A stretch of 64,000 bases of DNA from a phage. The notes beneath the pieces are model-generated. The model worked only from the letters and a program-made list of their open reading frames with translations, was not told the DNA's origin and did no database searches. Positions within the stretch are counted from its first letter, which is position 1; every line of letters starts with the position of its first letter. The stretch lies in the sequence record OR896157.1, one strand, 5' to 3'. Positions 13,657-14,310 of the stretch are shown here, one piece after another. The position numbers and the translations under genes are program-made.

Positions 13657-14310
13657 TTACTTAGTTTCTACCTTTTTGAGTGCTTTGGCACGAACGTCCA
13701 CACGGTGCGCCGACTCTATATATTTGCGAACTTCTTTAGCTATGCCAGTAGTGTAAGCTACAGTTTCGACTGTCGTATACAAGTCCATCAGCTCAGGAGT
13801 GTCGATGTTGCTGATGTTACGACCTCTGCGGATTTTAGCAAACTGAGTTTTAAGTGCAGCACCATCTTTAGAAATTTCGTTGAGAAGAGCGAGAATCTTC
13901 TCATACTTGTTTACGATGCCTTTAACGTCAAACTTGTAAAGGTCTGCGCTAACTTTAGGAGCCGGCGTCGCTTTAGGTGTCTGAACTGGAGCTGCAGGTT
14001 TAACTGCTGGTGCCGCTTTAGGAGCAGGAGCTTTCACTGCAGCAGCTTTAGGTTCTTTTGGTGCTTTTGCCGGAGATTTAATGCCTCTCAGAGTTTTAAA
14101 AGCATTTTGTACTTTGTAATAATCTTGTGGATTAGAAGTTCCAATACCATAAAGTTTTTGGACTGATGCAGCAAATTTCATGAAGTCGTTACGTTCGCCA
14201 GGAGGAACTAAATCCATAGCACTCTGCCACTTCATTTTAGTCATGCGTTCGCCAGCTTCAGTAATCATGTTGAAGCTAGATTCTGTAATAAATTCTTTAA
14301 AGTTAAGCAT
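13657..14310 (-). CDS. putative capsid internal protein with Ala/Pro/Lys-rich linker
   Basis: start at MLNFKEFITE (resembles IP targeting leader [10 protein letters not shown]); AKAPKEPKAAAVKAPAPKAAPAVKPAAP tract; late promoter upstream. Confidence 0.4.
   Translation of the reverse strand: MLNFKEFITESSFNMITEAGERMTKMKWQSAMDLVPPGERNDFMKFAASVQKLYGIGTSNPQDYYKVQNAFKTLRGIKSPAKAPKEPKAAAVKAPAPKAAPAVKPAAPVQTPKATPAPKVSADLYKFDVKGIVNKYEKILALLNEISKDGAALKTQFAKIRRGRNISNIDTPELMDLYTTVETVAYTTGIAKEVRKYIESAHRVDVRAKALKKVETK

Follow-up and report, generated by a model that had tools for sequence, protein, structure and literature searches.

Polymorphic internal proteins of T-even phages, of which Repoila et al. 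are said to have counted "at least 10 reported" in 1994, are products of accessory genes whose mature parts are unrelated and which have in common an N-terminal tag. They are encoded at the ipI or ipII/ipIII hyperplastic loci, are mostly ∼80-190 residues long with a single domain, and are strain-specific. Here we describe a gene in a 64,000-nucleotide stretch of phage DNA (sequence record OR896157.1; the window, below, means this whole stretch) that resembles them in its accessory status, unrelated mature part and tag, but belongs to a family that occupies a third locus, is modular, and is kept across at least eight genera. By its sequence, the window comes from a PG7-like Karamvirus, a T4-like Enterobacter phage. 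On balance, and with moderate confidence, we favor the reading that the gene is a member of a previously unrecognized family of T4-type internal head proteins, whose product would be both targeted to the head and retained in the virion.

T-even internal proteins, where tested, counter type IV restriction (PMC12373910; bioRxiv 10.1101/2025.11.20.689424). Mature IPI* of T4 inhibits the type IV restriction enzyme GmrSD, and all three T4 internal proteins inhibit distinct GmrSD-type enzymes (Nat Commun 2025, PMC12373910). The leader-bearing Bas37_0260 (HIDEN-SEQ) gains fitness importance on a host with the type IV systems McrA, McrBC and Mrr (bioRxiv 10.1101/2025.11.20.689424). Because T4 Ip1-3 inhibit GmrSD and Bas37_0260 is tied to type IV restriction, leader-bearing proteins are a productive search ground for injected anti-defense factors. 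The gene and its parts are as follows (pLDDT, predicted local distance difference test; the arrow marks a cleavage position).

13657-14310, minus strand: the gene's open reading frame (ORF), from ATG 14310 to TAA 13657, 217 amino acids, N-terminus MLNFKEFITESSFNMITEAGERM.
13657-13659, minus strand: stop codon TAA, read from the sequence.
14281-14310, minus strand: leader, residues 1-10 (MLNFKEFITE), of capsid-targeting type by matrix score and family conservation, ending in the first I-x-E site.
14257-14280, minus strand: spacer, residues 11-18 (SSFNMITE), ending in the second site, I-T-E↓A, in a T4 IPI-like layout.
14083-14256, minus strand: N-domain, residues 19-76, conserved (ERMTKxKWQSAMD...YYKVQNAFK), with three helices according to family alignment and model.
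13948-14082, minus strand: basic linker rich in Ala, Pro and Lys, residues 77-121, assigned as disordered from its composition, net charge (+8) and pLDDT below 50.
13660-13947, minus strand: C-domain of family type A, residues 122-217, predicted helical hairpin (pLDDT above 90).

Compared with T4 IPI, the leader is nearly superimposable (MKTFKEF...ITE↓A in IPI, MLNFKEF...ITE↓A here). IPI (NC_000866) starts MKTFKEFTSTTTPVSTITE↓ATLT and has 19 residues removed, whereas the window protein starts MLNFKEFITESSFNMITE↓AGER, with I-T-E↓A at residues 16-18 instead of 17-19, and would by prediction lose 18. The two are also alike in having a small basic product, a non-essential polymorphic gene, and a phage that encodes gp21 and a scaffolding core. 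They differ in that mature IPI* is a 76-residue alpha/beta fold (PMC3012670), whereas the predicted counterpart has ∼200 residues and is all-helical with a disordered tail; ipI adjoins 57B, whereas the window gene adjoins e.8; and packaging and function are proven for IPI, whereas those of the window protein are putative. The capsid-targeting sequence was defined on T4 IPIII (Ip3). The leaders of IPIII and of the window protein are alike in having 10 residues, an aromatic side chain at position 4, Phe at position 7 and a terminal I-x-E. Mature IPIII, or IPIII*, has 20 kDa and an isoelectric point (pI) of 9.65, against a predicted ∼22 kDa and pI 9.9 here. Unlike the window protein, IPIII is without an Ala/Pro/Lys tract, has K-T instead of L-N at positions 2-3, and its locus is denV-e. 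A profile comparison (hhalign) of the family with T4 IPII and IPIII aligned residues 1-12 in register and nothing else, which matches the published statement that Ip1-3 share the leader only (PMC12373910).

The leader is the part of the protein that carries the argument. From seven leaders of internal proteins in other phages (T4, RB69 and ValerieMcCarty04) we derived a position matrix and used it to score the 512 Met-started ORFs of at least 50 amino acids in the window, with two canonical leader-bearing ORFs of the window as references. The window protein reached 13.1 bits (z=5.8) and ranked third, after those two references (30.0 bits for the ORF at 21188-21496 and 21.7 bits for that at 6177-6473); the next ORF that is not an internal protein scored 1.9 bits, and the remaining ORFs averaged -19.4 ± 5.6. 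The pattern ^M..[FY].[ED][FIL][ILVT].E, partly shaped by a prior view of the family sequences, occurred in 3 of the 512 ORFs against 0.018 expected, the other two being again the canonical internal proteins. According to a review of Black's work, the propeptides of T4 internal proteins have 10-19 residues, and in IPIII the main determinants are residues 4 and 7 for targeting and residues 8 and 10 for processing (PMC9026906). At positions 4, 7, 8 and 10 the window protein has F, F, I and E. Two candidate gp21 processing motifs (I/L-x-E followed by A or S) are present, one at residues 8-10 (ITE↓S) and the other at residues 16-18 (ITE↓A). Judged from sequence, this is a genuine capsid-targeting-type leader, beyond a chance match. 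The original prediction had proposed a leader of the T4 internal-protein type cleaved after Glu; the resemblance is borne out, and is closer to IPI than had been claimed. The I-x-E motifs that cleavage would need are likewise present, and cleavage itself is inferred from them.

Conservation within the family points the same way. Homologues were found by tblastn in 190 phage records, from genera that include Karamvirus, Mosigvirus, Dhakavirus, Jiaodavirus, Kanagawavirus, Winklervirus and Marfavirus, as well as in a Yersinia phage; in total the family spans at least eight genera. Among them, JS98 orf135, HX01 gp043, RB69 ORF149c/148c and PG7 gp146 (phrog_2280, "hypothetical protein") are true homologues or orthologues at the same position upstream of e.8, and they share the plan of leader, N-domain, basic linker and C-domain as well as a late promoter of their own. 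With gp146 of PG7, an Enterobacter phage (Karamvirus, Tevenvirinae), the window protein shares 97% identity. In the family alignment M1, F4 and E10 never vary, F or I occupies position 7, and in most members a second [LIV]-x-E comes directly before the conserved ...RMTK domain. Mean pairwise identity among 15 divergent members was 56% in the leader, 43% in the N-domain, 36% in the linker and 31% in the C-domain, and the leader is retained even where the N-domain has drifted far (MLQYNEFLKE in P0034, MLKFNEFLAE in P0035). Unlike the window protein, the JS98 and RB69 homologues have the canonical leader form MKTY..EF..E: the N-terminus of JS98 orf135 is a canonical internal-protein leader, and that of the RB69 relative, MKTYAEFLTE, is indistinguishable from the leaders of RB69's annotated internal head proteins. 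In RB69 (NC_004928, 73428-73990) ORF149c and ORF148c overlap and, read jointly as one frameshifted gene, have the family-like domain plan. Either this is a pseudogene, or an error in one base of the sequencing has split the gene, as documented for RB69 ORF053c/052c.

An exhaustive hidden Markov model search of 1.8 billion representative proteins returned 15 representatives, all from the same family, which indicates that the family is confined to this phage group. A search of IMG/VR added nothing new for the family, and a literature search by accession and locus tag did not find it. All listed homologue records, the cluster names and phrog_2280 itself are "hypothetical", unannotated or of unknown function. 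The protein is therefore new in a restricted sense: homologues already stand in 190 deposited phage genomes, and what is probably new is their recognition as internal-protein candidates.

The gene is also equipped as a late gene, with the signals listed here.

14339-14346, minus strand: T4-type late promoter TATAAATA, exact match, 28 nucleotides 5' of the ATG.
14318-14321, minus strand: Shine-Dalgarno sequence GGAA, read from the sequence, 8 nucleotides 5' of the ATG.
13613-13652, minus strand: predicted intrinsic terminator, a hairpin followed by T5, 3' of the stop codon (-21.7 kcal/mol, z=-3.4).
14354-14377, minus strand: GC-rich UUCG hairpin just 5' of the late promoter (fold -17.1 kcal/mol, z=-4.0).

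The late promoter announced in the original prediction is thus there. The window holds 17 copies of TATAAATA against 4.2 expected, a number reached by none of 100 shuffled sequences and expected of a T4-type phage. All eight homologue loci examined and the RB69 relative carry TATAAATA or a variant differing at the first base only, 35-46 nucleotides 5' of the ATG. In T4 late promoters the first base is the one under least constraint. Since the promoter or its first-base variant stands at every homologue locus examined, the gene appears to be a monocistronic late unit, and on the basis of the promoter motif we describe it as a self-contained late transcription unit. The terminator was not picked up by a consensus terminator scan, which we attribute to its interrupted stem. 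The UUCG hairpin is probably the 3' end or terminator of the preceding unit, the transfer RNA (tRNA) and stable-RNA region; by eye, equivalent hairpins precede the promoter in PG7, JS98, HX01, UTI-K1, KP179 and Marfa, some of them followed by a T-run.

In the window the gene sits between an e.8 homologue and a cluster of 19 tRNA genes, and the order tRNA region, family gene, e.8 or e.6 is kept at all loci examined. T4 was not among the tblastn matches listed, and T4 has no ORF at this position. ValerieMcCarty04 has the gene (VMC04_131) and the closely related ValerieMcCarty03 is without it, although both are Jiaodavirus with 95% average nucleotide identity; because of this difference, the slot between tRNA-Thr and e.6 is a variable region. 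The family gene is accessory: T4 and ValerieMcCarty03 do not have it, the RB69 copy is apparently frameshifted, and its C-domain comes in two types. ValerieMcCarty03 might have been thought to carry IPIII in its place, and we rejected this, as the annotation is wrong. The protein in question, VMC263_125 (561-1142 of the locus examined, minus strand), is annotated "putative IpIII internal head protein" and is without a targeting leader (MDSLHAPRNG...). ValerieMcCarty04 encodes an identical protein under the name "putative terminase large subunit", so that one annotation, if not both, is wrong.

Behind the leader the layout is as originally predicted, with a low-complexity tract, AKAPKEPKAAAVKAPAPKAAPAVKPAAP, followed by a C-terminal domain; residues 77-121 are 76% Ala+Pro+Lys, and in the family the composition of this linker is kept and its sequence is not. 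AlphaFold2, run on the family alignment, modeled a disordered leader, a three-helix N-domain (pLDDT 89 when modeled alone), a disordered linker (78-115) and the helical-hairpin C-domain. Cut at E10 or E18, the predicted mature product would have 207 or 199 residues and a net charge of +17 to +18. Kanagawavirus and Jiaodavirus members have, in the family alignment, an unrelated type B C-domain behind the same N-domain. The protein matched phrog_2280 (unknown function) over its full length (E=2.4e-53, with residues 1-211 aligned to all 178 profile positions). A Pfam scan of the protein found no family, a sequence search of solved structures found no relative, and a fold search of the Protein Data Bank (PDB) with the C-domain found no significant match. 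In architecture only, the protein resembles linker histone H1, which also has a small helical globule and then a Lys/Ala/Pro-rich disordered tail with S/T-P-x-K-like motifs. The lysines of T4 internal proteins contact DNA phosphates (PMC3012670), and by this analogy the Lys/Ala/Pro tail probably lies on the packaged DNA.

The machinery that would handle such a leader is encoded in the window, as are the two reference ORFs.

50397-51038, plus strand: gp21 prohead protease (phrog_207 head maturation protease, E=3e-78), expected to cut the leader.
49714-51887, plus strand: prohead core module gp67, gp68, gp21 and gp22, with PHROG matches to prohead and scaffolding proteins.
21188-21496, minus strand: canonical internal head protein at the ipI locus (phrog_2667 internal head protein, E=2e-42), with a canonical leader followed by ↓A.
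6177-6473, minus strand: second canonical leader-bearing ORF, 98 amino acids, between e and denV, with a canonical leader followed by ↓AAEQ.

PHROG matches place gp23 and gp24 in the window too, and its gp24 starts MANIHDLLRE↓S, an I/L-x-E↓S motif. The ORF at 6177-6473 is "hypothetical" in PG7 (gp127), belongs to phrog_3966 of "unknown function" and has no Pfam match; its sequence suggests one more unannotated internal protein, placed where T4 has ipII/ipIII.

We hypothesize the following course of events. The gene would be transcribed on its own from its late promoter, in step with the head genes, and MLNFKEFITE, acting as a capsid-targeting sequence, would dock the precursor into the prohead's scaffolding core, made of gp22, gp67 and gp68. 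The gp21 protease would then cut after Glu10 (I-T-E↓S) and/or Glu18 (I-T-E↓A), freeing a mature protein made of the three-helix domain, the lysine-rich Ala/Pro tail and the variable helical C-domain. This product would stay on the packaged DNA, with the lysine tail probably along the phosphates, and enter the host with it. In the cell the variable C-domain would most likely act on a host factor, which by analogy with T4 Ip1-3 may be a DNA-targeting defense such as a type IV restriction enzyme. Targeting, cleavage, virion retention, injection and an anti-defense role are all things we infer from the sequence, and the anti-restriction role is argued by analogy, since the protein is not homologous to IPI*, Ip2 or Ip3. 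At the level of sequence, the gene has the defining features of an internal protein that we looked for, namely the leader, a processing motif, a late promoter, a phage-encoded protease and core, an unrelated mature part and accessory status. One could go further and picture a modular injected effector, of a sort so far undescribed in T4-type phages, in which the leader loads the protein, the N-domain and H1-like tail ride the DNA, and a swappable C-domain, with two or more unrelated types, is the "warhead" against genus-specific host defense. We hold this extension to be a doubtful possibility; if true, a single delivery chassis with exchangeable anti-defense domains would be common to T4-like phages of Enterobacter, Klebsiella, Escherichia, Serratia and Yersinia.

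However, four observations weigh against an internal head protein. The most direct concerns the virion. The original prediction had named mass spectrometry of virions as its check, and one virion proteome could be consulted for a family homologue, namely the liquid chromatography-tandem mass spectrometry of cesium chloride-purified ValerieMcCarty04, a Jiaodavirus (PMC13119998, Table 3 and Data S2). The homologue VMC04_131 (WKM80661) has 0 spectra and no entry in Data S2, whereas its neighbors WKM80658, 80662 and 80663 are listed there. The canonical internal proteins of this phage gave 26 (WKM80648) and 66 (WKM80649) spectra, and Table 3 further includes the ADP-ribosyltransferase with 191 and the DNA end protector with 17 (PMC13119998). 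WKM80661 is intact, and its sequence would give many good tryptic peptides. It differs from the window protein in a leader one residue shorter (MKFKDFLTE) and in a C-domain of type B, and because of these differences the result weakens the case without settling it for the window protein. Of the predicted packaging in the capsid, the leader therefore speaks for it and the one virion check, made on a homologue that differs in leader and C-domain, speaks against it. Studies of three other phages were of no help on the family: the paper on ECLFM1 (Karamvirus) does not name which hypothetical proteins were found in its virion gel bands, phiR1-RT has no record among the family matches, so that its particle proteome is uninformative, and the work on phiEap-3 contains no mass spectrometry. 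Secondly, at all loci examined the gene lies outside both classical ip loci (ipI by 57B, and ipII/ipIII at denV-e), a location that is typical of internal proteins, not defining. Thirdly, leader positions 2-3 are L-N in place of the usual K-T. Finally, searches of PDB, Pfam and sequences with the protein gave no link in fold or sequence to known defense inhibitors, and the mature protein has no similarity beyond the leader to the GmrSD inhibitors IPI*, Ip2 and Ip3 and no significant PDB or Pfam match.

The absence of spectra keeps two alternatives alive. According to the first, targeting by the leader is real, and what reaches the scaffolding core is a transient component that serves assembly, through core organization or DNA entry, and is degraded or expelled at maturation like gp22 and gp67 instead of being injected. 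This would fit the missing spectra of a homologue rich in good tryptic peptides, as well as the fact that no annotated major prohead scaffold is among the Table 3 entries with more than 15 spectra, as expected if the core is lost at maturation (PMC13119998). The modeled C-domain, an elongated helical hairpin, would have a scaffold-like shape, and extra [LIV]-x-E sites occur in the body of the protein, LNE at 143-145 in the window protein and IGE and LVE in the type B domain. Yet the LNE is the single internal candidate cleavage site in the window protein, and a gene so dispensable and patchy, which ValerieMcCarty03 and T4 lack and which in RB69 seems to be frameshifted, is unlike those of assembly factors. 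Its strongly basic product also stands apart from the T4 core proteins gp22 and gp67, which are acidic, and the interchange of its C-domain between genera suggests an externally directed function. A PHROG scan of the protein gave no match to phrog_237, phrog_1049 or phrog_1064, the families of the window's own core proteins. We consider a transient core component unlikely.

The second alternative, to which we give a slightly lower and still small probability, is a late protein that is not packaged at all: a basic, linker-histone-like protein that acts on phage DNA in the cell, with a leader inherited from an internal-protein cassette and since unused or repurposed. The combination of a globular three-helix domain with a K/A/P tail suggests as much, and both the negative proteome of the Jiaodavirus homologue and the position outside the classical ip loci agree with it. 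However, a vestigial tag should decay, whereas no part of the family is better conserved than the leader, which in JS98 and RB69 has the canonical form; conservation also extends to the [LIV]-x-E sites that immediately precede the folded domain.

That the resemblance is due to chance or to a misplaced start, with translation beginning at M15, M23, M26 or the upstream TTG 14502 so that the leader would not be N-terminal, is very improbable: the frame is indeed open up to TTG 14502 in the window (a 64-codon extension giving a 281-amino-acid ORF), but PG7 carries a 1-nucleotide deletion there that shifts the frame, in-frame stops lie 7 (JS98) and 4 (HX01) codons 5' of the ATG, the extension of the single database protein that has one at its N-terminus (P0018) is unrelated to that of the window, the late promoter and hairpin would both fall inside it, a Shine-Dalgarno sequence precedes ATG 14310 and none was seen before M15, and residues 1-10 are conserved as protein across genera. 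Because of the PG7 deletion we regard the extension as not conserved as coding sequence, and for all the reasons given on the upstream stretch we rejected the TTG and place the start at ATG 14310, which leaves the leader Met of the original prediction in place. By eye, AGGA or GGA stands 5' of the same Met, at the same distance, in all eight homologue loci.

An internal head protein thus remains the reading we favor, and it would have some practical bearing. Members occur in about 190 sequenced T4-like phages whose hosts are of clinical relevance (Enterobacter, Klebsiella, E. coli, Shigella, Serratia, Cronobacter and Yersinia). Many of these phages are therapy candidates, and the family offers a concrete anti-defense candidate. 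Recognition as probable capsid cargo corrects the annotation and indicates that internal-protein genes may also lie outside the two classical loci. Given the contrary proteome, moreover, the family is well suited to testing to what extent packaging can be predicted from the leader alone.

Some further features of the region deserve mention. Between the late promoter and a small ORF (14588-14788) by tRNA-Thr lies a GC-rich non-coding stretch of ∼240 nucleotides (14347-14590, minus strand), which folds at -88 kcal/mol (z=-1.9), ends in the strong UUCG hairpin and matches nothing in Rfam. The stretch may represent a stable RNA that has yet to be described; homology to T4 rnaC/rnaD, which occupy the same position, was not supported, as there is no sequence similarity. 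The 19-tRNA cluster (14804-20057, minus strand) is broken by small ORFs, among them a gp30.3-family protein (15507-15956) and a 154-amino-acid ORF (18899-19363) without a Pfam match, and a copy of TATAAATA lies inside the cluster too (19949-19956). In the e.x accessory region, a 305-amino-acid ORF (9447-10364, minus strand) contains the domains DUF7277 (E=3e-28) and DUF7275 (E=2e-77).

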